From Nymphon striatum (Eukaryota), in NCBI GenBank assembly GCA_016618385.1, contig JABFOP010000807.1:280216-335549 (forward strand): a stretch of DNA of 55,334 bases. Reading direction: 5' to 3'. Below, piece after piece: positions 14,047 to 52,605 of this stretch (position 1 is the stretch's first letter; each line of letters begins with the position of its first letter). A program made the translations under genes and the position numbers. The notes under the pieces are model-generated. The model saw only the letters and a program-made list of their open reading frames with translations. It did not search any database and was not told the DNA's origin.

Positions 14047-15689
14047 TATTCTACATTATGGCGACCTTCAAGTTAAGCTCTATTCTCAATAATTAGTTCC
14101 TCCAATAAATGTTTACTAATGAAATAATGAAGCATTTTGAAGTTTTTATGCAAATATCAGTTTGAAATTTAGAAGAAGAAAAAGTGGCTCAATGTCATGT
14201 CAAAAATATACTCATGAGAGCCATGTTATTGTTTTAATACTACTCAAAAATTATTTCAAATTTAGGTTATCTTCTTTGTCAATTAACAATGTTATCATGT
14301 AATGATGTAATCCTTGAAAATCCCCAACTAGCTGCTCAGTAGTATCTTTTAAAATTATTGTAGATAAATTTTGTATGTTGAAATCAAACATACATTGTTT
14401 AAATTACCAGTTATAGCGCAACATAGGTGCAGGTCACTAGTTGTGGAAAGTAATTCAGTCATTGTATCACAACTAGCTGAAGAAAGAAGAAATGGGAGAC
14501 CTTTGACAAATGAAAATGATCTGTGTTTATTTTGCAATAACACAAGGCTTATATGCACAAGGGACAAGAGAAATTTGAAAGGTATGTGAATAGAAGAACC
14601 ACAGGTGAAGAGAAGGATTAATCTCTGGCACATTTTTACTGTCCATTCCACCACTGCCACCATGTAACGAATGTACGTGGGACCATTAATAAAGAGATAG
14701 ATAACTAACTACCTCTTACCTCTGACAGGAATCGAACCCGCACCTCCCAGCTTGCAAGTCAGGTATGCTACCATAATACTACAGAGGTAAACAGTGTGTA
14801 CCATCATATTCAGATCTGTACTCTCACATTACACCACTGTAGGGAAAAGCTTTACCAAGGTGAGAAAGAAGAGGAAATTGAAGTCGTCATTGTTACAGGA
14901 CTCCACACCACAGTGATAACGTCCAGTAAAGCCGGCTCAAGTCAAACAGTGCAAATGTAATTGCAGGTGCCGAAGCTGATTGTGAGGATGAAACTGGTCT
15001 TGAGGATGAAGTTAGGTCATAAGTGAGAGTTTCCTGTGAGAAGTTGTATCAAACATTACATCTGGATGATGTCACAGTTAAACCATAGCGCTATTCCTAT
15101 ATCCAAATGTATTACACAGCTGTATTTTCAATTAAACTCTCTCTTGCCTGTAGAATTTCAAACCGTCAATATGTAGTCCCTCATTCAATATCTTACATTC
15201 CTCGTCCTAATAACCGAACCTCGATCAAGTAGCTCATTCATCAAATTTATAAAACCAAACATGCTACAATTGGCAACCCTGGCGTGATGTTTGCCACAAA
15301 GTTGACCTGTGAGAGTCTGTAACCATTTGGAACAAAGCTAGAAGAATGTGGAATTTGTAGGCAGACAGACAGCAACCAGCTAGAAAGTTTTCTTTGACAG
15401 GAATGGCATTATCCATGTCCGATTTCACAGGGTCTACAGTGTGAACGTACGTGGGACAGGATCATTTATCCTACAATGAATTTATTTTCCAATACAATAC
15501 AAGACGCGATAGACGAGATATTTAATCAATATGCAAATGAAACCTAGGGTGAGTTGCTATACAAATCAGAATATTCAATTTTATTCAAATAAATAGGGTC
15601 ACCAGTTGTAGCGCAATGTAGGTGCAGGTCACTCTAGTTCCACTAGTTGTGGAAAGTGACTCAGCCATTGTAGCAATGACTAGCTTAAA

Positions 15690-23398: not shown

Positions 23399-23760
23399 TT
23401 TATTAGGATTTTTGGTCCTTTGGGGTTGGCAGGTATGTATGTGGTGAAGACGCACACAAAGTGTAAAGATTTGACCCAGACAGTGAAGAGTAGCAAGTGG
23501 AACTGGGCCGGACACGTGACTAATAGAACAGACGATAGATGGACCACTAAAACCACAATTTAGATAGCAAATAGGGGAGAAAGAAAACGAGGAAAACCGA
23601 AGATAAGCATGGATATTATTACCATGGATGATATAGCTAAATTTGAAAGTAATTGCGTGGAGAGAGCTGCCGATAGAGAGGACTGGAGATCTAGAAGGAA
23701 GGCCTTTGCTCAGCAGTGGTCCTAGTTGGGGCTGATGAAGATGATTTATTTTACAGGTAT
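23399..23760 (+). mobile_element. RTE-clade LINE 3' end fragment (ORF2 C-terminal tail, KWNWAGHV.RTDDRWT..T.W) nested inside the hAT element
   Basis: It is about 85% identical to 31150-31440. It ends in a gatgaagatgat simple tail. Confidence 0.7.
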
Positions 23761-26315: not shown

Positions 26316-26909
26316 TCAGTAGGGTACTGCATCGCCGTAACGTTCAGGGGCCTTTCTAGACCTCTGGGATCGACGAGGACCCTCGTTCAAAGCAACACTT
26401 TCAGCATTGGCTCGGCGTTCGGAGTGGTCCTCAGAATGAGAAAGAGTTGGTAAATTTTCGACTGGCGAGTTGATGAATTCTGGTTCTGTTGAGCCTTGTG
26501 TAATGGGCGAACTTTTAGGCAGAACCAATGAGTCTACTTCATCCTGTAGCTCAACGTCTAGCGTTTCTTTATTTCCGGTAGATGGAGATGGGCAAGGGGC
26601 TAGATCCGATGTTGTGCTCTCACGACCATCGCGATGACGAATGTGAGCGTAGGTCTGGTTAGCATCTAGAAGCATAACTTGGTCACATAATGGATCTTCT
26701 TTTGATCTGACAAAACGCCTTAGTAATACAGGCCCTTCAGATAAGAGCCAGGAGGGCATTGAAGACCCAGTCATTGCACGTCTGGGAAATTTAAATATCC
26801 TTTCATGAGGAGTTTCGTTGGTTGCGAGACATATTAGGGACCGGACTGAATGGAGAGCTCCGGCTAAGACAGATTCCCATTGAGATTCGGGCAGCGATCG
26901 ACTGTGCAA
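26316..26909 (-). pseudogene. Retroelement integrase C-terminal fragment (..NETPHERIF.. GSSMPSWLLSEGPVLLRRFVRSKEDPLCDQVMLLDANQTYAHIRHRDGRESTTSDLAP)
   Basis: The 197-aa ORF matches the conserved integrase tail of LTR/DIRS-type elements. Identical 85-bp direct repeats flank it at 26195-26280 and 26990-27075. Confidence 0.6.
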
Positions 26910-28584: not shown

Positions 28585-29190
28585 TCAGTCTCACCTTAAT
28601 AATAATAATGTTTATCACATAATAGGGCGGTTATTCTACCGATCTCAGTGGACATAAAAATGGTATAAACACACGTGTAAAAACGTTTTTTAAAACGATT
28701 AACTTCTTAACGGTGAGAAATGTTTTTAATGGGCAACCGATTTTAAGTGACAATAATCTTGAACAATGACAAATGACTCTTAATAGTTTTCGTAATGGTT
28801 TTCCACTTTACTCAGATGTTTTTATTGCATTTGACTTGACCGGGTCCCCATTTTAATGGCTTGACCGGAGGGCTTCAATAGTGTCATTTAACTTATTTAC
28901 GATCATTTTAAAGAGGCGACAGACCGGAAAATGTTTATAATGATTTGGCCAGAGGGCTCTTTGATAAAACCTTACACTTTTCTTTATACATTTGTTATAG
29001 CTGAATCTATTTTAAATTAATTTAAATTAATTTTCAAAGCTATCTATTGATTATGTGATGTCCACGTCGTATACAGAATATATGACGGGCACTCATCACG
29101 TATCCTTTATATACTTTTTTCTTGAAACCGGTCCCTATATTCGAAAGAGGCAACCCCCCCCCCCCCCATAAAACAAATCCTGGATACGGG
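28585..29190 (+). repeat. About 600-bp interspersed repeat family copy 1 (cacataatagggcg ... acgattaacttcttaacggtgaga ... C15 tract)
   Basis: It is about 88% identical to 33785-34315. Partial copies lie at 40020-40170 (+) and 43795-44100 (-). It ends with a poly-C homopolymer. Confidence 0.75.
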
Positions 29191-30772: not shown

Positions 30773-31655
30773 GGGGCCATTCAGAAATTACGTAACGCCG
30801 GAGGGGGTGGGTCATGTTTAACAGAAATGTAGAAATCCAACCCATTATGACAGGAAATGTGGCCTTGGACCAAGTTGATAGATATACTTATTTAGGACAG
30901 CTTATCTCAATACACAGAGACTGGGAGCCTGAAGTGAGGCGACGTGTTGCCCTAGGTTGGCAAGCTTTCGGTCGCCTGAACAATGTTTGGCGCAGCATGT
31001 TACCTCTCTGCTTGAAGCGGAAGGTATATGATTAATGTATCCTGCCTGTACTAACATATGGGTCAGAGACCTGGGCAATTACAGATACCCTGTTGAGAAA
31101 ATTGGCGAGTGCACAACACAGTATGGAAAGAAGGATCCTAGGTGTGAGCTGGAGGGATAGAAAGACTAATAGTTGGGTGAGGACACAAACAGGGTGTAAA
31201 GATTTGACCCAGACAGTGAAGGGTAGCAAGTGGAACTGGGCCGGACACTTGTCCCGTAGAACAGACGATAGATGGACCACTAAATCCACAATTTGGATAA
31301 CAGATAGGGGAGGAAGAAAACGGGGAAAACCGAAGAGAAGGTGAGTAGATGATATAGCTAAGTTTGACAGGGATTGGGTGGATAGAGCTGCCGATAGAGA
31401 GGACTGGAGATCTAGACGGGAGGCCTTTGCTCAGCAGTGGGCCGGTACAGGCTGATGATGATGATGATGGGGGGTGGGGTGTCTGGCAACGTGTTACATA
31501 ATACCATCAAGGTTGCCAGATTGGCCTTTTTAAGGCCAATTTTTGCAATTTCGGTCTATTTTAGAGGGATGAGTTCATACTTTTGTTACGTAATTTTTTA
31601 GGGGGTTATGTCAATTTTGGCGAAAAAAGCATTACGTAAATTTCTGAATGGCCCC
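30773..31655 (+). mobile_element. Small TIR element (TIR ggggccattcagaaattacgtaa) carrying an RTE LINE 3' fragment: uninterrupted paralog of the 34646-42335 element
   Basis: 30773-30795 is the reverse complement of 31633-31655. The internal 30814-31470 is an RTE ORF2 tail ending in (GATGAT)n. Confidence 0.7.
30814..31470 (+). mobile_element. RTE-clade LINE 3' end (ORF2 C-terminus, frameshifted) with a (GAT)n tail
   Basis: ORFs 30814-31035 and 31093-31344 match the RTE/BovB ORF2 C-terminus (LGQLI..EVRRRVALGWQAFGRL ... QRSMERRILGVSWRDRKTN ... KWNWAGHLSRRTDDRWT). It ends in gatgatgatgatgatgg. Confidence 0.8.
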
Positions 31656-33784: not shown

Positions 33785-34315
33785 AATAATAATGTTTATC
33801 ACATAATAGGGCGTGTAAAAACGTGTTATAAAACGATTAACGTCTTAACGGTGAGAGATGTTTTTAATGGGTGGTCGATTTTAAGTGACAATAATCTTGA
33901 ACAATGACAAATAGCTGTTAATAGTTTTCTTAATGGTTTACCACTTTACTCAGATGTTTTTATTGCGTTTGACTTGACCGGGGGCTTCAATGGTGTAATT
34001 TAATTTATTTACGAGCATTTTAAAGAAGCGACAGATCGGAGAATGTTTTTAATGATTTGGCCGGGGGCTCTTTGATAAAACCTTACAATTTTCTTTATAC
34101 ATTTGTTCAAACTGAATCTATTTTAAATTAATTTTAATTAATTTTCAAAGCTATCTATTGATTATTCGATAAACAGAATACCAAACTTGTCCACGTCGTA
34201 TACAGAATGTATGACGGGCACTCATCATGTATCCTCTATATACTTTTTTCTTGAAACCGGTCTCAATATTCAAAAGAGGCACCCCCCCCCCCATAAAAAA
34301 TCCTGGCTACGGGAA
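33785..34315 (+). repeat. About 600-bp interspersed repeat family copy 2
   Basis: It is a paralog of 28585-29190 and includes a C11 tract. Confidence 0.75.
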
Positions 34316-35962
34316 TGGACCTTCCTATCATCCCATCCACCGATGACACTTCAACATACACACAGCTTTTTCATGCTGGATTCTACTATATTATCTTCTG
34401 ATATTTTGAATATTTAGCAATGTTCGTATAAAAGTACAAAAGTACCAACAAAGAAACAATAAAACGATAAAATAAAACGATCTTATTCAATGGCTGAAAT
34501 TGAATTAGGGCCTCGGATACAGTCAACAGCCGTCCTTAAAAGACTGAAGCTGATTTTTCTTTAAATCCAAGCAGATGTCTGAAGATTAGAGAGGAAAGCA
34601 CGAGAACACAACATTTTCAATCATTTATGCTAAATTATATACTTAGGGGCCATTCAGAAATTACGTAACGCCGGAGGGGCGGGGTGTCCACCCTAGTGTT
34701 ACAGAGGATTGGGGGTGTTTGGCCAAGTGTTACATAACACCGTCAGGGTTGCCAGATTGGCATTTTTAAAGGGATACTCCACTCATCGGGTGTAGAAAAA
34801 AAAATTCCCAATCCATGGTTATAGTACGTATCGCTGGCTGGGAGCAAAAACGTCGTATTTACCATTTTTTTTCAATTATAAGTCTATAGCATAATCTTGT
34901 TTGGCAATGAACATGGATTCAATTTTTGCATGGACGATGTGATTTTCGTCCTTGGGAGTGACACTAGAAGAGGGAAAAAAGATCGTATGTGCCAGAATAT
35001 TCTTTTATTTAGAGTGAAAACATATCGTAACTGAATTGTTTGTGTGAATTCTTGTAAATAAGTTATGATGTTTTTGCTCTCAGCCAGCGATATATCAAAC
35101 AACAATTCCTGATTTGTAAACCTTTTTTATCTACTTATTTAATATTTTTAAACGTATTTTAAAATCACCTACTTTGGATATCACGGCAGCTGCCCACCAT
35201 ACAACCGCATTTATTCGAGCCAAGGAGAGGGTAAATGATGGTGATCAGTTTCGGCTCGAATACATACGGTTGTATCCCTCCTCCACTAGCCTAATTCTGA
35301 AAAGTATCCTCATCACTCGACGAATATATATAAGCGTCAGCCATCTTGATGAACTACTGAGCATTGAATGCACGTCACATATGACGTAACAGTCAGAAAT
35401 GGATGATGCTGTGATATCCAAAGTAAGTGATTTTAAAATACGTTTAAAAATATTAAATGAACTAGAAAATATTTCAAAAAATCAGGAATTGTTGTTTGAT
35501 ATATATCTATATTTATAATTCTCAAATTTAGTTCAACACATTTCCACCAGGATTCCTTACCTATTCGAATGCTCGGTTTTCTCCAAATTCAGTCTCTCCT
35601 GAGTCGCGTAGATCCGTCAACTTCTACACAATGCATGATAACTAAGTTGGAGTCGTCAAGTTGAAAACAAATTAATGATTCCTCCGTTGTTTTATATTTA
35701 ATTAATTAAATAAAACTCCTCAAGGTTTCGCCTGTGGCGCTGCTATCCGGTGTATGGAAGTTGTGACGATTTCTATATTTTAGTATATTTTTAAGAAAAT
35801 AATCAAAAATAATAAATAACCATTGCCATGAATATATTAATAATATTTATAAAGGTTTACAACACTTATTTTAAGAAAGAACTAGATTTAAACTAAATAT
35901 AGCCGTGTAAAATGTTGATGGTTCAATTCATACTGTAGCCATATGTTAATTTTTTCCCCGTA

Positions 35963-38900
35963 TAGTCCGGCAGCCAAACCCAATTTTAAGGCTTAACCCG
36001 GACTTGAGGTATTAACTTTTTTTGAATGCTGATATTTGTTCATTAGGACCTCTTCATTGAAAAACCAGATGATGCCACTTTGTCACCCTTGAGCAATTTG
36101 AGATAATTAGCATAATTAATAATGGACGCCAAATATTCATATTCCCCTTATGACGCCTGATACATTGCCACAGAAAGTATATAAATTGAATTCTAAACAT
36201 GTTTTCTTATCATTACTGAGTGAAAAGAGACTCTTGATCAATTTGGGATAATTAGCAGAATTCAAAATGGCCGCCAAATAGTCGTATTTTTATTTTGATA
36301 CCTTATACATTGCTATAGACAAGCATGTCAAGCTATATATTGTATTCGAAACATGTTTCATTATTATTACTGGTTTACATGAGACACTAGCTATATTTGT
36401 GATAATTATTAAAATTCAAAATGGCCGCCAAATATTCTTATTTACTCTTTTGATACCATTTAAATTTCTATAGACAAGCATTTCCGGCTGAAAATTATAT
36501 TAACAAGACATTTTATTACAAATGTTCTAAAGAAAATCTGAAGATTTTAATTAATCATATAAGCATAAATTTCTAGTCATCATCCTCGCTGACATCAGTG
36601 GGTCTTGTCATTCAATTTTGACAAGCATGGACCCTTGACAATTGCAAAATATAGTACATGAAAGTCCTGCCATTACATCCACATTTCTTTGAAATGCATG
36701 GTCCTATACTTTCGCAAGAACATTTAATTAAAGTAAGATATCCGAGATATCCTTAGGTGCGAAGGCCACATTGTCAGGAACAGTTATCGTTTGCAAGGTT
36801 CTTTCTTCTTTCTTGAATCCAAATAACTCTGGATCTAAACTGTCGGTATGAGGTCCAGGATTGCTTCCATATGCAGGCTTGTAAGTGGGCACGTTTAACA
36901 TTTTCCTTGAATGACTCATTGGTTGGTGGTAAGAGGTTAAACTTAGGTGTCCCAGTTTTAGTTTGTGCAGTTTTTGAAGCCCATACATCAAGTCTTACTT
37001 GTGACAATGACTCAGAATTAGGATTTCCATAACATACCAAATAAACTTAGTGGCATAAGGCAACACAGCTTCAATGTCAGAGTTAATGTCACCTAGGAGA
37101 TTTGGGTAGATACCAGACTTGGCCACTTTGAGAGCTCTAGTTTTGTCAATCCCATGACACTGAGCCACTGTGTCCCACCCTGATAAATGCATGAGTTGGC
37201 AAGATCATGTTCACATATGGTTTGTATTTCTTCACAGACTCCTGAATGTCAATGACACTACGACCTTTTTGTGGTGCTTCCATGTACATTCTGCTATTTA
37301 AGTTTAGTAAGTTGTAAAAGTTAAGTAGCAATACAAAGATATCAGTATCATCTGCTTCAACTTCAACTGACAGGTTACTTTCTGCTAACATCATTGCCTG
37401 TTGTACAGTCAGCTTCTTCATGTGATGTAGCAATGCAATGCCTCGTAACTACTTCTTTGTGAATCTCAACAGGAATTCCATCTTGGCTTGTTATAACTTG
37501 CTTTTCCTCTTGTGTGACTGCTCGTGGAATGATTTGTCACTTATTAGATGACTACCGATTAACCCAATCAGTTGCTTATTGTTTCCATCAACATTTAGGC
37601 TGACTTCTTTTGCTGGCAATTCAGAGTTTATCGTTGTGAGGTAGTGAATTTTACCAACACCAGAAGCTCTCCCACTTCGTGCTGCACTCTTTGTACTAAA
37701 GTTGAGATACCTATAAAATATTAGATACACATCACCATGTCTCAGTCTCCATTCAATAAGGCTCTTGAATCCAGCGCTTAAATCTGCTACTGTGCCCTTT
37801 GTTGGCCAGTTAGGAATCCAGATAAATGCTGATCCATCTATCACAGTAGCATCTATTAGAATAGTCCTAACAGATGTTTCCACTTGTAACCTCTTCAACT
37901 TCGCTCTATCTGTCATGAATCTTATAGCTCCTGAATCATTGAACATTGAAGTGGGCACAGGAGCCAGTTCATATGAAAAGAGGTCCTGAAGATTAAAATT
38001 ACGTGCACTCGCCTGAACACCAATTATTCTTGAATAAATCAATTCAATATCAAAGAGACGATCAGAGCCAACTGGAACATGTTTCTTCAATGTAACTAAG
38101 GTTTCAATCTTTTTATGAATAGTCCCATGAAATCCATTTGGCTAACTCTTTTCAAAGTTCTTGATTTCCCTTTCATCAATTTTCACAGACTCATGAGCAT
38201 TCACTGACGGAATGCAACCTGGCCAGTAACTACGTTAACTATTTCAGGTGGATGTTCATCTAGATTCAGTAGATCAAAACATAAGGAAATCTTCCTCCTT
38301 AAGTTATCTCTGTCTCTGCCATCTGAGTGAATGCTGGTATTGGACTCTTCATTTCAGTACTGCTCATTTGTCTTTCCTTCTGTAAGATTAGATACACCAT
38401 TTTCCAACTGGCTGCAGATGTGTAAGCTCAAAGCCCACATCTTCAGTGTGTTTGGTTTCAGTGTTACACCAATGATCACACTTTGACCTTTCCCGTAGCG
38501 CATAAATGTTGCCTCTATGAATTGATCACTCCAAATACTGTTCCAAATGCCGTCTCTGTCTCCATGCATTTCATAGAAATGTGGATGTAATGGCAGGACT
38601 TTCATGTACTATATTTTACAATTGTCAAGGGTCCATGCTTGTCAAAATTGAATGACAAGACCCACTGATGTTAGCGAAGATGATGATTAGAAATTTATGC
38701 TTATGTGATAAACTAAAATCTTCAGGTTTTCTTTAGAACATTTGTAATAAAATGTCTTCTTAATATAATTTTCAGCCGGAAATGCTTGTTTATAGAAATT
38801 TAAATGGTATCAAAAGAGTAAATAAGAATATTTGGCGGCCATTTTGAATTTTAATAATTATCACAAATATGGCTAGTGTCTCATTTAAACCAGTAATGAT

Positions 38901-39291
38901 AATAAAACATGTTTCGAATACAATATATAGCTTGACATGCTTGTCTATAGCAATGTATAAGGTATTAAAATAAAAATACGACTATTTGGCGGCCATTTTG
39001 AATTCTGCTAATTATCCCAAATTGATCAAGAGTCTCTTTTTACTCAGTAATGATAAGAAAACATGTTTAGAATTCAATTTATTTACTTTCTGTGGCAATG
39101 TATCAGGCGTCATAAGGGGAATATGAATATTTGGCGTCCATTATTAATTATGCTAATTATCTCAAATTGCTCAAGGGTGACAAAGTGGCATCATCTGGTT
39201 TTTCAATGAAGAGGTCCTAATGAACAAATATCAGCCTTCAAAAAAAGTTAATACCTCAAGTCCGGGTCCACCTCAGGTTCTGCCGGACTAG
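35963..39291. mobile_element. Long-TIR DNA transposon-like element: about 750-bp TIRs (35963-36720 and 38585-39291) with three subterminal tandem about 120-bp repeats (..aaatggccgccaaata..), termini tagtccggcag, possible 3-bp target-site duplication (TSD) GTA
   Basis: The arms are reverse complements over about 700 bp. Both flanks read GTA immediately outside the termini. The interior holds a minus-strand nuclease pseudogene. Confidence 0.75.
36728..38605 (-). pseudogene. FEN1/XPG-like (PIN-fold 5'-nuclease) family ORF, frameshifted, inside the long-TIR element
   Basis: Overlapping minus ORFs (37491-38090, 37146-37433, 36774-37040) encode IDATVIDGSAFIW, GDVYLIFYRY, EADDTDIFVLLL and a C-terminal NLLPPTNESFKENVKRAHLQ. 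It is a paralog of the + ORF at 40772-41997. Confidence 0.6.
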
Positions 39292-39522
39292 TAAATATTC
39301 TATGGCGGAATACATGGAATAGCAGCAGACTGCCATAGCAACTCAACTGCACAAGAAGGGAATTTGTTATTTAAACAGCGCAGTCAAGTTTTTAGTACGT
39401 ATTTTTTAAAGTTAATATTATTAAACGTTATAGGTAGAATAAGTAGGTTTTTTGAATAACTTTTAATGATAAAATGTATTGTGTAAAAACTGTAAAACTT
39501 AAAATCCTTTATCTACTGCGCT

Positions 39523-39744
39523 GTGTACACTTTTGAATGTGACTTGTGTGATGCAAGTTATGTTGGGTACAACCTTGGGTACAACACCACCCGACATCTC
39601 CATCAACGTAGACAATCACAACACAAATACTCTGCTATTGGGAAGCACTTAGAAACAAAATACAGTGTGGACAAGTCATCATCACCCATTGATCACCTGT
39701 TCAAATGTGCTGAAAAAAATGCAAGACCAAGTTTGACTGTCTAA
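39523..39744 (+). pseudogene. Penelope-like element GIY-YIG endonuclease fragment (FECDLCDASYVGYN..TTRHLHQRRQSQH...SAIGKHL)
   Basis: GIY-YIG-type motifs: C-x2-C, YVG, R.L..R..QH and SAI..H. It is an isolated 73-aa ORF. Confidence 0.5.
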
Positions 39745-40771: not shown

Positions 40772-41997
40772 ATGACATCATCTTTTCTTAAGATTTCAAA
40801 ACTCAAAATACTACAAAGATATTTGACAAGATCCGTTCATTCACATCTCGTCCAAAATGTCGAATATATTGCCATCATTGTCAATGTCGTCTTCATTTAC
40901 AGTTTCCGTGGCTGTTCTCTAAAAGGAAATCATATTTTAGAATCGTCAGAATCGTCAGAAAAAGCTGATGTTGATCCAAACGCCTTGCATGTTCTTGATG
41001 GAGGAGCACTTTTGCACAAAGTTCGATGGTCCTACCAGCGTCACTTATAGAGAAGTTTGCGATCTTTATGTTAATCACATCAAATCAAAATATGGCATTG
41101 GTACAATTGTATTTGATGGATACATGGATGGACCATCTACTAAAGATCATGAACACGCAAGAAGAAGTCTCAACAAAAGAAGATGTGCAGATGTTCAATG
41201 TGATCTTTCAACAAAGGTCAATTTAAAACAAGATGTTTTTTTTATCGAGCATCACCAACAAATCTCGTTTGATTGACATGTTATCAACTTATTTAATCAA
41301 GTCTGGCAACAAAGTAATCAAATGTGACGAAGATGCAGACACCGAGATTGTTAGATGTGCATTATATGTTACAGAGACTGGAAGAAAAGTTAACGTAGTT
41401 GCAGACGATACAGATGTTGCTCTCTTACTTTTATACCATTGGAGTGAGAGTATGGAAGAAATTACATTTACTTCTGAGAGATCAAAAGCCACCTTTAATA
41501 TCACTTCTTCCTTATTGAAGATACCTGCTCAGATCAAATCATATCTTCTGGTCTTACACGCCTGGACTGGCTGTGACACGACATCTGCAATCCATTCGAA
41601 AGGAAATAATTCATTACTAAGGAAGTTAAAAACTTCTCAACACCTTCAAAGCTTGATGGATATTTTGAGTGACAAAAATGCTGATCAAGTAGAAGTTGGC
41701 GCAGCAGGAATCGAGTTGTTCTTGTACATGTATGGAGGAAATCAGACCTTGACTGAACTACGGTACGCATTTCCTTACTTTCCAGGAAAAAAAAACATTA
41801 GCATCTTGTTTGCAAGCTTAATGCTTGATATGTGCACTAGCAGATTTGTAATTTTTCTTATCTCAATATTCAATAATACTTATTTTTTAGCTACTACAAG
41901 TTTATGGATATGGCAGCTAAAGGTGAGATACTACCAGAAAACCTTCCACCAACAGAGCGAGCAGCAGTTCAACACAGTCTACGGGTCCATCAGCAAG
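40772..41997 (+). CDS. FEN1/XPG-like PIN plus H3TH nuclease-family ORF, second paralog (frameshifts; putative 128-bp intron 41763-41890)
   Basis: Motifs: HVLDGGALLHKVRW, GIGTIVFDGYMDGPSTKDHEH, VVADDTDVALLLLYHW and AWTGCDTTSAIHSKG (H3TH-like). After splicing GTACGC...TTTTTTAG the C-terminus reads ..TELRYYKFMDMAAKGEILPENLPPTERAAVQHSLRVHQQVVV*, which aligns to the minus copy's LPPT tail. Confidence 0.55.
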
Positions 41998-42721
41998 TAG
42001 TGGTATGACAAACGTATACGACGGGCACTCAACACGTATCCTCTATATATTTTGGCTGGTACTCTTCCATACTGATCGGACTAACCCGTCAGGGACGGGA
42101 CCCTCTAGTATACTATGGATTGGAAAACATTATGTTTTTTTTTTTTTTACACCTAATGAGTGGAGTATGCTTTTAACTTTAAGGCTACATTTTGCAATTT
42201 GGGCCTTTTTTAGAGTGATTTGGCCTGGAAAAATTGGGGGGAGGGTCATACTTTTGTTACGTAATTTTTTAGGAAAGGTGTGGTTAAGTGTCCATTTTGG
42301 CGAAAAAAAGCGTTACTTAATTTCTGAATGGCCCCTCATATGCTAAACAAACAATCGCAAACCTATCTATACTACATAGCGGTATTAATTTGTATTGCAG
42401 ATTGGGAAAAAAACAGTTTTGATTATTTCTAAAATACAGCTGCAAATATAGTATATAAAGCAAAAACAAATTCATACATTTTTACATGCTAATTTTAAAA
42501 TTTATATATAGAGGATACGTGATGGGTGCGTCGTATACAGAATATGTATGTGCTCGTAAACATTGCTGTTATTTTCAGCGAGCCTTGGTGAGCTAAAAAT
42601 AAATCAATGTTATAGCGAGTTTCATATATTCTGTATACGACGTAGTCGAGTTTGGTATTCTGTTTATCACATAATCAATGGATAAGTTTGAAAATTAATT
42701 AAAATGAAGTTAAAATAGATT

Positions 42722-43690
42722 CATAAATATTAAGGCCAGGGATATGGTTTTTAAAGCCATTTATTTTTTTATTAAAAAATAAAAACATAACAAACGTTTC
42801 GGCCATCTAGGCCATCATCAGTGAACAAAGATCAAATAAAACAAAATCGTAAAATATCCAACTTTAAAGAATTTTTTTTAAATGATATGCAGAAAGGAAA
42901 GAAAAAAAGAAAAGAATAAATAAAAATTCAGTTTAAGATTGCCAGCGGATAGGAAGAAAGTGTGTCGTTTAGTGAAGGTCGTTTTTTATATATGTGGATG
43001 CTTTCTAAAATTCTGAGTTCAATATCCGACTTAGCAGAACCAATAATTGCAAAATTTGAAAGAGTTATTTGACATTTGCAACTATTGGTATGCTGTCGAA
43101 TACTGCTGTGAGGTGGGTTTGAAAGGGGGTTGTTGGATCGAAAACTCTTACCAGCATGTTCTGCAACTCTCCTGTATAATTGTCTCTTGGTAGTACACCT
43201 GTCTCTTATATTGGTTCTACCAAGAGACAATTATACAGGAGAGTTGCAGAACATGCTGGTAAGAGTTTTCGATCCAACAACCCCCTTTCAAACCCACCTC
43301 ACAGCAGTATTCGACAGCATACCAATAGTTGCAAATGTCAAATAACTCTTTCAAATTTTGCAATTATTGGTTCTGCTAAGTCGGATATTGAACTCAGAAT
43401 TTTAGAAAGCATCCACATATATAAAAAACGACCTTCACTAAACGACACACTTTCTTCCTATCCGCTGGCAATCTTAAACTGAATTTTTATTTATTCTTTT
43501 CTTTTTTTCTTTCCTTTCTGCATATCATTTAAAAAAAAATTCTTTAAAGTTGGATATTTTACGATTTTGTTTTATTTGATCTTTGTTCACTGATGATGGC
43601 CTAGATGGCCGAAACGTTTGTTATGTTTTTATTTTTTAATAAAAAAATAAATGGCTTTAAAAACCATATCCCTGGCCTTAATATTTATAA
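42722..43690. mobile_element. Perfect palindrome (about 480-bp arms, about 20-bp spacer at 43196-43216) formed by head-to-head Penelope-like element 3' ends
   Basis: 42722-43195 is the reverse complement of 43217-43690. Each arm encodes an identical 100-aa GIY-YIG ORF (42928-43230 - and 43180-43482 +: YIGSTKRQLYRRVAEHAG ... SSIRQH ... ILESIHIYKKRPSLN). Confidence 0.85.
43180..43482 (+). CDS. Penelope-like element GIY-YIG endonuclease domain ORF (one of the two inverted copies)
   Basis: It carries the YIG.T.R.L..R..EH ... S.I..H ... LE..HI.....LN signature. The mirror copy lies at 42928-43230 on the minus strand. Confidence 0.7.
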   Translation: MSLGSTPVSYIGSTKRQLYRRVAEHAGKSFRSNNPLSNPPHSSIRQHTNSCKCQITLSNFAIIGSAKSDIELRILESIHIYKKRPSLNDTLSSYPLAILN

Positions 43691-43794
43691 TTCGACTGGT
43701 GTCTACCAGAAATATCTCCATTCACTAAAATAGATTCAATTTAAATGAAAGTGTAAAATGTTTTAGCATAAAATAACACATTTCTTCCCCAGGC

Positions 43795-47372: not shown

Positions 47373-47539
47373 TAACAAAAAAAAAAATATGGAAATTTGA
47401 CCTTCGACCTGCTTTTTGAATGTCATGACATGGGCATTGCTTTATTTTGAATACACATTTCTTTTTACCTTATAGCTTACTATTTGGCCTCCAGCGACGT
47501 CCAGTGACCTCCGAAGTCACTCCCTCCTACCCAGTCAAG

Positions 47540-47935
47540 AATGTGATCTCACAGTGATATCACAGTGATATCACAGTGTGAGAAATTGTGAGAAATATGT
47601 GATATCACTGTGATATAAAAAAACGTACTAATAAAATATCACAGTTATATCACACTTGTGATATCATACCTGTGAGAAATCTGTGATATCACTGTGATAT
47701 CAAAAAACGTACTAATAAAATATCACAGTTATATCACACTTGTGATATCATACCTGTGAGAAATCTGTGATACCACTGTGATATCAAAAAACGTACTAAT
47801 AAAATATCACAGTTATATCACACTTGTGATATCATACCTGTGAGAAATCTGTGATATCACTGTGATATCAAAAAACGTACTAACAAAATATCACAGTGAT
47901 ATCACACTTGTGATACCACGCACCCCCCCCCATTA
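47540..47935. repeat. Tandem satellite, about 84-bp unit x 4.5, built from the palindromic GTGATATCAC decamer (cacagtgatatcac)
   Basis: The unit aaaaaacgtactaataaaatatcacagttatatcacacttgtgatatcatacctgtgagaaatctgtgatatcactgtgatatc repeats at 47616, 47702, 47786 and 47870. Confidence 0.85.
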
Positions 47936-47984
47936 GTTACAGCCGTATATATGCCATATATACCACCTATTAAAACCCATTACT

Positions 47985-48345
47985 TACTTACTGTAGAACG
48001 GGGTTACTTTGCACTGCAAACTTTGCACAAAATTAGAATTTTTCTTGTTCACCACGTATACTCTGTATGTAACGAGATATCACGAAATAAAAAAAAATTA
48101 TTTGATGTATACATGTATAAGGCATTATTCTACCACATTGATGGGTTTATATTTTTTTCAAGTACCAATAAAAAAAATATAAACCCATCAATGTGGTAGA
48201 ATGTGGCCTTATACATGTATACATCAAATAATATTTTTTATTTCGTGATATCTCGTTACATACAGAGTATACGTGGTGAACAAGAAAAATTTTAATTTTG
48301 TGCAAAGTTACCAGTGCAGTGCAAAGTACCCCGTTCTACGGTACT
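47985..48345. repeat. About 170-bp-arm inverted repeat (hairpin-forming)
   Basis: 47993-48160 is the reverse complement of 48172-48339. Confidence 0.8.
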
Positions 48346-52225: not shown

Positions 52226-52605
52226 ATGATATCACACACGTGAGTTACATGTGATCTCACAGTGATATCATGTCTGTGATATCATACACGTGATATCACT
52301 GTGATAACACACGTAACTCACGTGTGTGATCTCACAGACATGATATCACTGTGAGATCACTGTGATATCATACATTTTTTGTTTTTAATGCTTGGAAATA
52401 GAAAAAAAAAGGAATATTTATGATATCACTGTGACATCACTGTTATGTCACACTTGTGATATCACACATGTGAGATCACTGTGAGGTCACTGTGATATCA
52501 TACTCGTGATATCACAGACATGATATCATTGTGAGATCACTGTGATACCATACTTGTGATATCACGCATGTGAGTTACATGTGATATCACTGTGATATCC
52601 TGTGA
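52226..52605. repeat. GATATC-rich palindromic satellite (gtgatatcac / gtgagatcac / cacgtgag units), a second locus of the 47.5-kb family
   Basis: It is a dense array of GTGATATCAC-type decamers arranged as nested palindromes around 52380. Confidence 0.8.

Follow-up and report, generated by a model that had tools for sequence, protein, structure and literature searches.

Positions 35963-39290 of a 55,334-bp stretch of the Nymphon striatum genome (contig JABFOP010000807.1; the whole stretch is called the window here) hold a 3,328-bp element that we regard, with high confidence, as a decayed and non-autonomous copy of AcademX, the XPG-nuclease lineage of the Academ superfamily of transposons. 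AcademX elements, of which Academ-1_CGi, Academ-2_HM, Academ-3_SP and Academ-4 to Academ-9_ADi are examples (Kapitonov and Jurka 2010; Kojima 2020, PMC7165386), combine a transposase, an XPG domain and a Cys8 zinc finger and show 3-bp target-site duplications (TSDs) in animals (Kojima 2020, PMC7165386). The window element shares with them one large protein made up of DDE transposase, XPG-like and Cys8 parts, a 3-bp TSD and TAGTCYRG termini, with the transposase homology established via full-length relatives (E values of 1e-30 or better). It differs in being a 3.3-kb defective derivative that lacks the catalytic DD part, in belonging to a sublineage that is only ~30 to 33% identical to the published AcademX domains, and in its terminal inverted repeats (TIRs) of ~740 bp with three 150-bp subterminal repeats, which exceed any TIR length given in PMC7165386. 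An original prediction, made from the sequence alone, had proposed an Academ-like element or an undescribed transposon family. Both its assignment to transposons and its Academ suggestion are borne out by the agreement of protein family, TAGTC termini and 3-bp TSD with published AcademX, whereas an undescribed family is contradicted by the match of the full-length relatives to published Academ transposase domains, with E values reaching 3e-34.

Boundaries, subterminal repeats and conserved ends

The window is AT-rich eukaryotic DNA (GC content of ~34%) that contains many inverted and direct repeats. An inverted repeat of 706 nucleotides (nt) with 97% complementarity pairs positions 35996-36701 with 38562-39267, and gapped alignment extended both arms to their tips. 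The left arm (35963-36700, plus strand, 738 nt), which is the 3′ TIR relative to the open reading frame (ORF), starts with TAGTCCGGCAG; the right arm (38563-39290, minus strand, 728 nt) lies on the 5′ side of the ORF and is an inverted copy of the left one. With 97% identity between them, these arms substantiate the long TIRs of about 750 bp that had been predicted. The sole divergent patch in the gapped alignment consists of indels at positions 12 to 34 from the tip. There, the left arm reads CCAAACCCAATTTTAAGGCTTAA (35974-35996) and the right arm AACCTGAGGTGGA (39267-39279), and the left version resembles the ends of two of the related elements described below (L008 and L002).

Within the 55-kb window, TAGTCCGGCAG occurs exactly twice, at 35963-35973 on the plus strand and at 39280-39290 on the minus strand (0.1 occurrences expected from shuffled sequences), and the element ends read TAGTCCGGCAG ... 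CTGCCGGACTA. Because the second copy ends at 39290, this position is the right end of the element, and not 39291 as first proposed. The left end is preceded by GTA (35960-35962) and the same 3 nt follow the right end (39291-39293). GTA on both sides had been put forward as a possible TSD, and the 3-bp flanks were found to match in five relatives as well. A search of the window with the joined flanks revealed no unoccupied paralogous site.

Each arm carries three subterminal direct repeats, spaced by 145 and 154 bp (Tandem Repeats Finder period of 154). Those of the left arm (36085-36518, plus strand, ~150 bp each) contain the cores (T/A)AATGG(A/C)CGCCAAATA at 36120-36135, 36265-36280 and 36419-36434, and each of these cores has TTGAGCAATTTGAGA or TTGATCAATTTGGGA before it. 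Those of the right arm (38790-39178, minus strand) have their cores at 38829-38844, 38983-38998 and 39128-39143. The repeats of both arms share the ATGGCCGCCAAATA core, and the AAATGGCCGCCAAATA core, when up to two mismatches were allowed, was found six times, always within the arms (0.05 occurrences expected). Three tandem repeats with a conserved core had been recognized correctly, while their length is ~150 bp rather than the ~120 bp that had been estimated.

The contigs of five homologs of the encoded protein were read, which resulted in a sublineage set of six elements including the window copy. Each of the five relatives has its ORF series enclosed by TAGTCYRG ends and 3-nt flanks that match; with the GTA of the window, this holds for six of six elements. 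The relatives are L002 (7077-13348; 6,272 bp; TSD TAG), L001 (2540-13543; ~11 kb with a nested insertion; TSD TCA), L006 (6893-14059; 7,167 bp; TSD TGT), L007 (6369-13770; 7,402 bp; TSD AAT) and L008 (7261-12764; 5,504 bp; TSD TCT). These autonomous relatives span 5.5 to 7.4 kb (L001 being longer through its nested insertion), and their TIRs range from ~160 to 768 bp. L002 is nearly intact, with ~1,450 codons interrupted by one in-frame stop and one frameshift, TIRs of 768 nt and subterminal tandem repeats of 187 bp, and constitutes a good candidate for reconstruction. The ORFs called within L002, L006, L007 and L008, for which no helicase screen was made, have one orientation, as would fit one long series of ORFs.

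The first ~170 nt of all 12 ends align. The conserved blocks are the TAGTCCGGCAG tip, GAACCYGGA..GTATAAAG at ~30 to 55 nt, ..CCTTGAGCAATTTGAGA, and ATGGCGTCCAAGATGGC. The terminus and subterminal blocks of the left arm are conserved in L001, L002, L006, L007, L008 and published Acropora AcademX elements. Both ATGGCGTCCAAGATGGC and TTGAGCAATTTGAGA blocks are present in the ends of the relatives, the former resembling the ATGGCCGCCAAATA core of the window and the latter being joined to an imperfect palindrome of the GGTGCC..GGCACC type at ~108 to 140 nt from the tip. As this non-coding DNA is conserved despite a protein identity of 41 to 46% to the repaired window protein, the end blocks appear to be functional cis sites and may be bound by the transposase. 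The palindrome upstream of TTGAGCAATTTGAGA (L001, 2640-2660 and 13418-13440; L002, 7185-7205 and 13220-13240), considered as a possible covarying hairpin, displayed apparently compensatory differences, with TGATGACA/TGTCATCA in L001 versus GGGTGCC/GGCACCC in L002; it is imperfect in the window, L006 and L008.

The termini of Acropora digitifera AcademX elements read TAGTCCGGGAGCA, TAGTCTGGCAGCA (Academ-5_ADi), TAGTCCAGGCA and TAGTCTGGTCGC, each with 3-bp duplications (PMC7165386, Figure S2), and Academ-4, -5, -6, -7, -9 and -N4_ADi start with TAGTCCGG, TAGTCTGGCAGCA, TAGTCCAG or TAGTCTGG (PMC7165386). The window sequence TAGTCCGGCAGCC fits this pattern directly, and a 5′ pyrimidine, a 3′ purine and TAGTC... 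ends are found in the window as in published AcademX.

A polyprotein remnant with a predicted FEN/XPG-like nuclease fold

The minus strand of the element carries a 5′-truncated AcademX polyprotein pseudogene (36608-38566) with at least eight frameshifts and two to three premature stops, terminated by a stop codon at 36608-36610. Frameshifts were counted from a three-frame translation of the minus strand; tblastn was unsuited for this, running through stops in one frame. The conceptually repaired translation comprised 612 amino acids (aa), and its best protein match showed 46% identity over 99% coverage (E value of 8e-164). Its relatives are proteins of 670 to 990 aa from molluscs (Pinctada, Nucella), amphioxus, corals and metagenomic animal contigs (E values of 1e-164 to 1e-100), and tblastn of these homologs onto the window spanned 38605-36579. 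Coding similarity extends from 38566 down to the stop codon and is longer than the frames listed in the original prediction. That prediction had described a frameshifted ORF with the motifs VIDGSAF, FYRY and EADDTD, a helix-3-turn-helix (H3TH)-like stretch and an LPPT tail, all of which could be located on the minus strand. Its view that the nuclease is the only coding capacity has to be revised, since the ORF also holds the tail of a transposase domain and a zinc finger and is the remnant of a single large protein. No further ORF of at least 150 aa and no other transposase was present within the element. The window ORF is the C-terminal ~60% of an AcademX polyprotein, consisting of the DDE tail, the XPG-like nuclease and the Cys8 finger.

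What is left of the DDE transposase domain (HGDRDGIWNSIWSDQFIE; 38513-38566, minus strand) is its tail, with the W-S-D-x-x-I-E motif that comes last among those conserved in the published Academ alignment, and WSDQFIE (38513-38533) is the only transposase motif that survives in the window copy. Everything upstream has been lost, and with it the two regions that bear the first and second catalytic Asp. A complete transposase is not encoded, and the window copy is a non-autonomous member of its family. Because the regions of these two Asp residues are absent while the tips, subterminal repeats and TSD are intact, it could move only with a transposase supplied in trans, as is usual for non-autonomous cut-and-paste elements; its many frameshifts and the loss of an invariant acidic residue of the nuclease likewise speak against movement on its own. 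The proteins of the relatives comprise ~1,450 aa, are 41 to 46% identical to the repaired window protein, and contain a DDE transposase with a long insertion domain, a FEN/XPG-like nuclease and a Cys8 finger.

To place the transposase, eight published transposase-domain sequences (Kojima 2020 Data S3, PMC7165386) were compared by BLASTP with the full-length homologs. Homologs P0003, P0008 and P0030 and ORF1 of L002 matched the domains of Academ-1_CGi, Academ-2_HM, Academ-1_AP and Academ-3_BF with E values of 3e-34 to 1e-15. Academ-1_CGi was 33% identical to P0003 over 291 aa (E value of 2.9e-34), followed by the pairs Academ-2_HM and P0008 (4e-33) and Academ-1_AP and P0003 (1e-32). The matched domains, of the Academ DDE type (DNxD ... 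LPxID ... TFDQxLY-RLGGxH ... RAERxGDW ... WSDxxIEQ), lie in the N-terminal halves of the homologs. Sola and Ginger elements have DDE or integrase-like transposases of their own and TSDs of 4 bp (or longer); given the Academ match and the 3-bp TSD, it is unnecessary to invoke membership in either group. With AcademH and AcademHP, the element has in common the transposase fold and conserved motifs of the superfamily as well as long TIRs (526 to 575 bp there). A separate RecQ-like helicase and TSDs of 9 to 10 bp, which are features of AcademH, were not seen in the window element, and AcademH lacks the XPG domain and the Cys8 finger. Arthropoda are already among the listed Academ hosts; a pycnogonid host is not mentioned in the Academ literature examined, and Academ is not mentioned in the sea-spider genome paper. 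The element represents a defective AcademX family in a pycnogonid, with TIRs that are longer than any in the 2020 paper and possibly rebuilt.

The Cys8 coding region (36611-36731, minus strand) reads LIKCSCESIGPCISKKCGCNG, followed by a frameshift and LSCTIFCNCQGSMLVKIE, and aligns with the Cys-rich C-terminal tails of P0001, P0003 and P0015. Eight Cys residues are found in LIKCSCESIGPCISKKCGCNG / LSCTIFCNCQG. The putative finger has thus been retained, albeit with a frameshift, and the left arm includes the final 90 nt of its coding region.

The nuclease domain, with a PIN-like and an H3TH part, occupies 37037-37973 (minus strand) and displays the motif series VIDG, FYRY, HEEAD, DDTD and SGWDTV..GIDK. 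In the three-frame translation of this strand, VIDGSAF was located at 37824-37844, FYRY at ~37707-37718, EADDTD at 37341-37358, the H3TH-like stretch GWD..GIDK at 37124-37183 and LPPT at 36909-36935. Pfam searches with the ORF pieces and the full-length homologs gave nothing significant (weak matches to 5_3_exonuc_N, with an E value of 0.07, and to DUF6589), and a profile built from the homolog alignment found no meaningful match among PDB sequences. An AlphaFold model of the homolog P0015, computed from a 40-sequence alignment, had a mean pLDDT (predicted local distance difference test) score of 75.6, with most of the core (residues ~210 to 630) above 90. Foldseek searches of the PDB with this model returned human Exo1, plastid exonuclease 1, archaeal and human FEN1, T5 flap endonuclease, ExoIX, GEN1, Rad2/XPG and Xrn1/Rat1 (E values of 3.5e-6 to 1e-2). 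Since the top matches belong to the Exo1/FEN1/XPG class, the PIN plus H3TH assignment that had been made from motifs alone is right at the fold level. The window copy keeps 22 of 24 invariant or near-invariant nuclease positions, the changes being D306 to Y and K350 to N. The first of these affects FYRY, which had been taken for an active-site motif and is in fact a mutated FDRY in which the invariant Asp is replaced by Tyr. Compared to FEN1, EXO1, GEN1 and XPG (Rad2), the predicted fold and the order of acidic motifs (IDG, FDRY, HEEAD, DDTD, GCD) are alike. On the other hand, Pfam and PDB-profile searches detect no sequence similarity to these proteins, the domain sits in a transposase polyprotein and not in a cellular repair gene, and the window copy lacks one invariant Asp and has a broken frame.

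Origin of the window copy and alternative explanations

The arrangement of the arms relative to the coding remnant suggests how the defective copy might have arisen. On the 3′ side of the ORF, the left arm takes in the last 90 nt of coding sequence, and the inner ~90 nt of the right arm (38563-38652) repeat the last ~30 codons of the ORF in inverted orientation. The right arm passes straight into the ORF at HGDRDG, and nothing of a 5′ untranslated region (UTR) is left between them, while in all five relatives the TIR ends 300 to 1,400 nt short of the ORF. As the arms are identical in layout and reach 90 nt into the 3′ end of the ORF, we propose that the 5′ arm was rebuilt from the 3′ end and that the resulting unit was then transposed and amplified, a scenario that we favor with some reservation. 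A full-length element would have exchanged its 5′ third for an inverted copy of its 3′ end, for instance through template switching between inverted arms during gap repair; internally deleted or rearranged derivatives of cut-and-paste elements are commonly attributed to abortive gap repair. Judging from the family, a transposase acting in trans would recognize TAGTCCGGCAG, GAACCYGGA, ..CCTTGAGCAATTTGAGA and the repeated ATGGCSNCCAA cores, excise the element and reinsert it with a 3-bp staggered cut. Transposition of the defective unit would have generated the GTA duplication, and its amplification would explain a frameshift that is shared with another N. striatum copy (see below). Like maize Ds, P-element deletion derivatives and foldback-like derivatives, the window copy has kept both ends and the subterminal, putatively binding repeats, has lost the transposase and depends on one in trans. 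Unlike in those derivatives, its 5′ end appears to have been replaced by the inverted 3′ end, including 90 nt of coding sequence.

Alternatively, the Nymphon master element could itself possess ~740-bp TIRs that include the last ~30 codons, with the window copy arising by an internal deletion that removed the 5′ UTR and the N-terminal ~850 codons. We consider such a native structure the less probable of the two explanations, but a serious one. It is consistent with the very variable TIR length of the sublineage (~160 to 768 bp), with the TIRs of 526 to 575 bp reported in Academ, and with the differences between the outer 12 to 34 nt of the arms, which are natural for independently evolving ends. 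A master of this kind is, however, at odds with the TIR stopping well before the ORF in each of the five full-length relatives and with the abrupt junction at HGDRDG, where no remnant of the 5′ UTR was left.

Several points weigh against the interpretation given here. The link to an autonomous master in the same genome is drawn from other species, and no full-length copy from N. striatum was retrieved. The case for a rebuilt arm is built on relatives that are only 41 to 46% identical in protein to the window copy. Binding of a transposase is a candidate role for the subterminal repeats. Finally, the nuclease assignment depends on the predicted structure of a homolog with 40% identity, and the Pfam and PDB sequence searches did not detect the nuclease.

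A window full of nested and inverted repeats might also suggest a composite of two AcademX copies, placed tail-to-tail or nested and followed by a deletion, in which the GTA/GTA match would be due to chance. This is improbable: the two arms agree in their repeat layout and, over 706 nt, at 97% of positions; matching 3-bp flanks have a chance probability of 1/64 and fit the rule seen in five of five relatives; and at least one internal frameshift is common to other Nymphon copies as well, suggesting that the defective unit itself was amplified.

We regard as very unlikely that an Academ fragment was captured by an element of a different, short-TSD superfamily (PIF/Harbinger, CACTA/EnSpm, or Tc1/mariner with GTCCGG termini and a TA duplication). 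PIF and CACTA elements also generate 3-bp TSDs, and a TA just inside each end formally permits a TA-duplication reading. That reading fails to predict the matching 3-nt flanks of six of six elements. The ends of the element carry the TAGTC of published AcademX instead of CACTA, full-length Academ ORFs in five other genomes are enclosed by these termini, and no other transposase is present. Tc1/mariner, with an element starting at GTCCGG, was rejected on the identical 3-nt flanks in six of six elements and the lack of a Tc1/mariner transposase. PIF/Harbinger, which has a Harbinger DDE and a Myb-like ORF and a TWA target, and CACTA/EnSpm were rejected as well: no Pfam domains of these families were found, the termini read TAGTCC, and the TSDs (GTA, TAG, TCA, TGT, AAT and TCT) do not follow a TWA rule. 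A coincidental inverted duplication around a decayed cellular FEN1/XPG-like gene, for which the inverted repeat and nothing further would speak, can practically be dismissed, as the TSD, the termini and the subterminal motifs have been conserved between species, the relatives have the protein joined to a transposase, and the family is multi-copy in N. striatum.

To our knowledge, Academ is among the least studied cut-and-paste superfamilies, and we know of no biochemistry on it. The six bounded elements with their conserved terminal blocks provide substrates to reconstitute Academ transposition and to explore the reason for the fusion between the transposase and a FEN/XPG-like nuclease. More speculatively, the cis set that is conserved across phyla (tip, GAACCYGGA..GTATAAAG, palindrome with TTGAGCAATTTGAGA, and iterated ATGGCSNCCAA cores) could serve as a platform for recognition and processing by the transposase and the XPG-like nuclease fused to it. 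In that case, the six elements would be the first defined binding and cleavage substrates for testing a nuclease role in Academ transposition, and the window copy would represent a derivative that amplifies with both ends of the 3′ type, implying that one end type suffices for mobilization.

Further copies in Nymphon striatum and neighboring repeats

The only matches at 74 to 95% identity were the chimeric N. striatum gene models P0039, P0043, P0055 and P0066, and the sequence is multi-copy in this genome. In P0043, exactly as in the window, one continuous frame covers both an out-of-frame stretch (KKMLNVPTYKPAYGSN) and the in-frame DPELFGF. Because P0043 and the window share this shifted frame, at least one frameshift predates the duplication of the copies. 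Among the N. striatum models P0039, P0043, P0055, P0066, P0067, P0070 and P0097, several are chimeras with fragments of this element and of a second Academ lineage, and chimeras carry the names Y-box factor, Synaptotagmin-7, 4-hydroxy-2-oxoglutarate aldolase, Prolyl 4-hydroxylase and Heparan sulfate 2-O-sulfotransferase. The N. striatum annotation is likely contaminated by transposable elements; the element should be masked as DNA/Academ, and the chimeric models should be treated with suspicion. A match of P0055 at 43186-43326 was considered as a further Academ fragment and rejected, since it represents a GIY-YIG-like piece of the chimeric gene model.

A second frameshifted XPG-like pseudogene, of high copy number in N. 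striatum, lies at 40772-42000 (plus strand). Its repaired 312-aa translation matches many N. striatum models at 63 to 94% identity as well as proteins of 300 to 540 aa from cnidarians and others. Its relationship to the element at 35963-39290 is remote, with 33% identity to P0003 over 167 aa (E value of 4e-11). The ORF of L005 (8126-9820), just upstream of the homolog P0118, is 41% identical over 492 aa to the Academ-2_HM transposase domain (E value of 6e-119), and on the basis of this match we assign 40772-42000 to a second, Academ-2_HM-like AcademX lineage. The paralogy that the original prediction had proposed for 40772-41997 is confirmed as a distant one.

Further repeats were observed in the window. 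A near-perfect palindrome at 42718-43693 has arms of 334 nt (99%) and 165 nt (98%) with a 17-nt spacer and encodes a GIY-YIG-like fragment (YIGSTKRQLYRRVAEH; Pfam GIY-YIG E value of 0.006, below the cut-off); it is possibly the remnant of a Penelope-like element. A 73-aa ORF at 39523-39744 (plus strand), ~230 bp past the right end of the element, shows a GIY-YIG-like pattern by eye (CDASYVGY..TRHLHQR) and has no Pfam match. Two inverted repeats, 24625-24810/27826-28011 (186 nt, 96%, 3 kb between the arms) and 7688-8052/8365-8729 (365 nt, 99%, 312 nt between the arms), probably represent further TIR elements or foldbacks; within the former, the ORF at 26316-26909 gave no Pfam match, and TAGTC ends are lacking. 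Direct repeats of 89 to 93% identity pair 23443-23722 with 31176-31443 (7.7 kb apart) and 28674-29163 with 33812-34292 (5.1 kb apart), and both pairs could be long terminal repeats or segmental copies. A tandem array with an 84-bp period and ~5 copies (47503-48002) and a second cluster (52241-52603) are both rich in the palindromic GTGATATCAC. Finally, a tRNA-Ala (TGC) was identified at 14716-14789 (minus strand) by ARAGORN and Rfam (45.3 bits).

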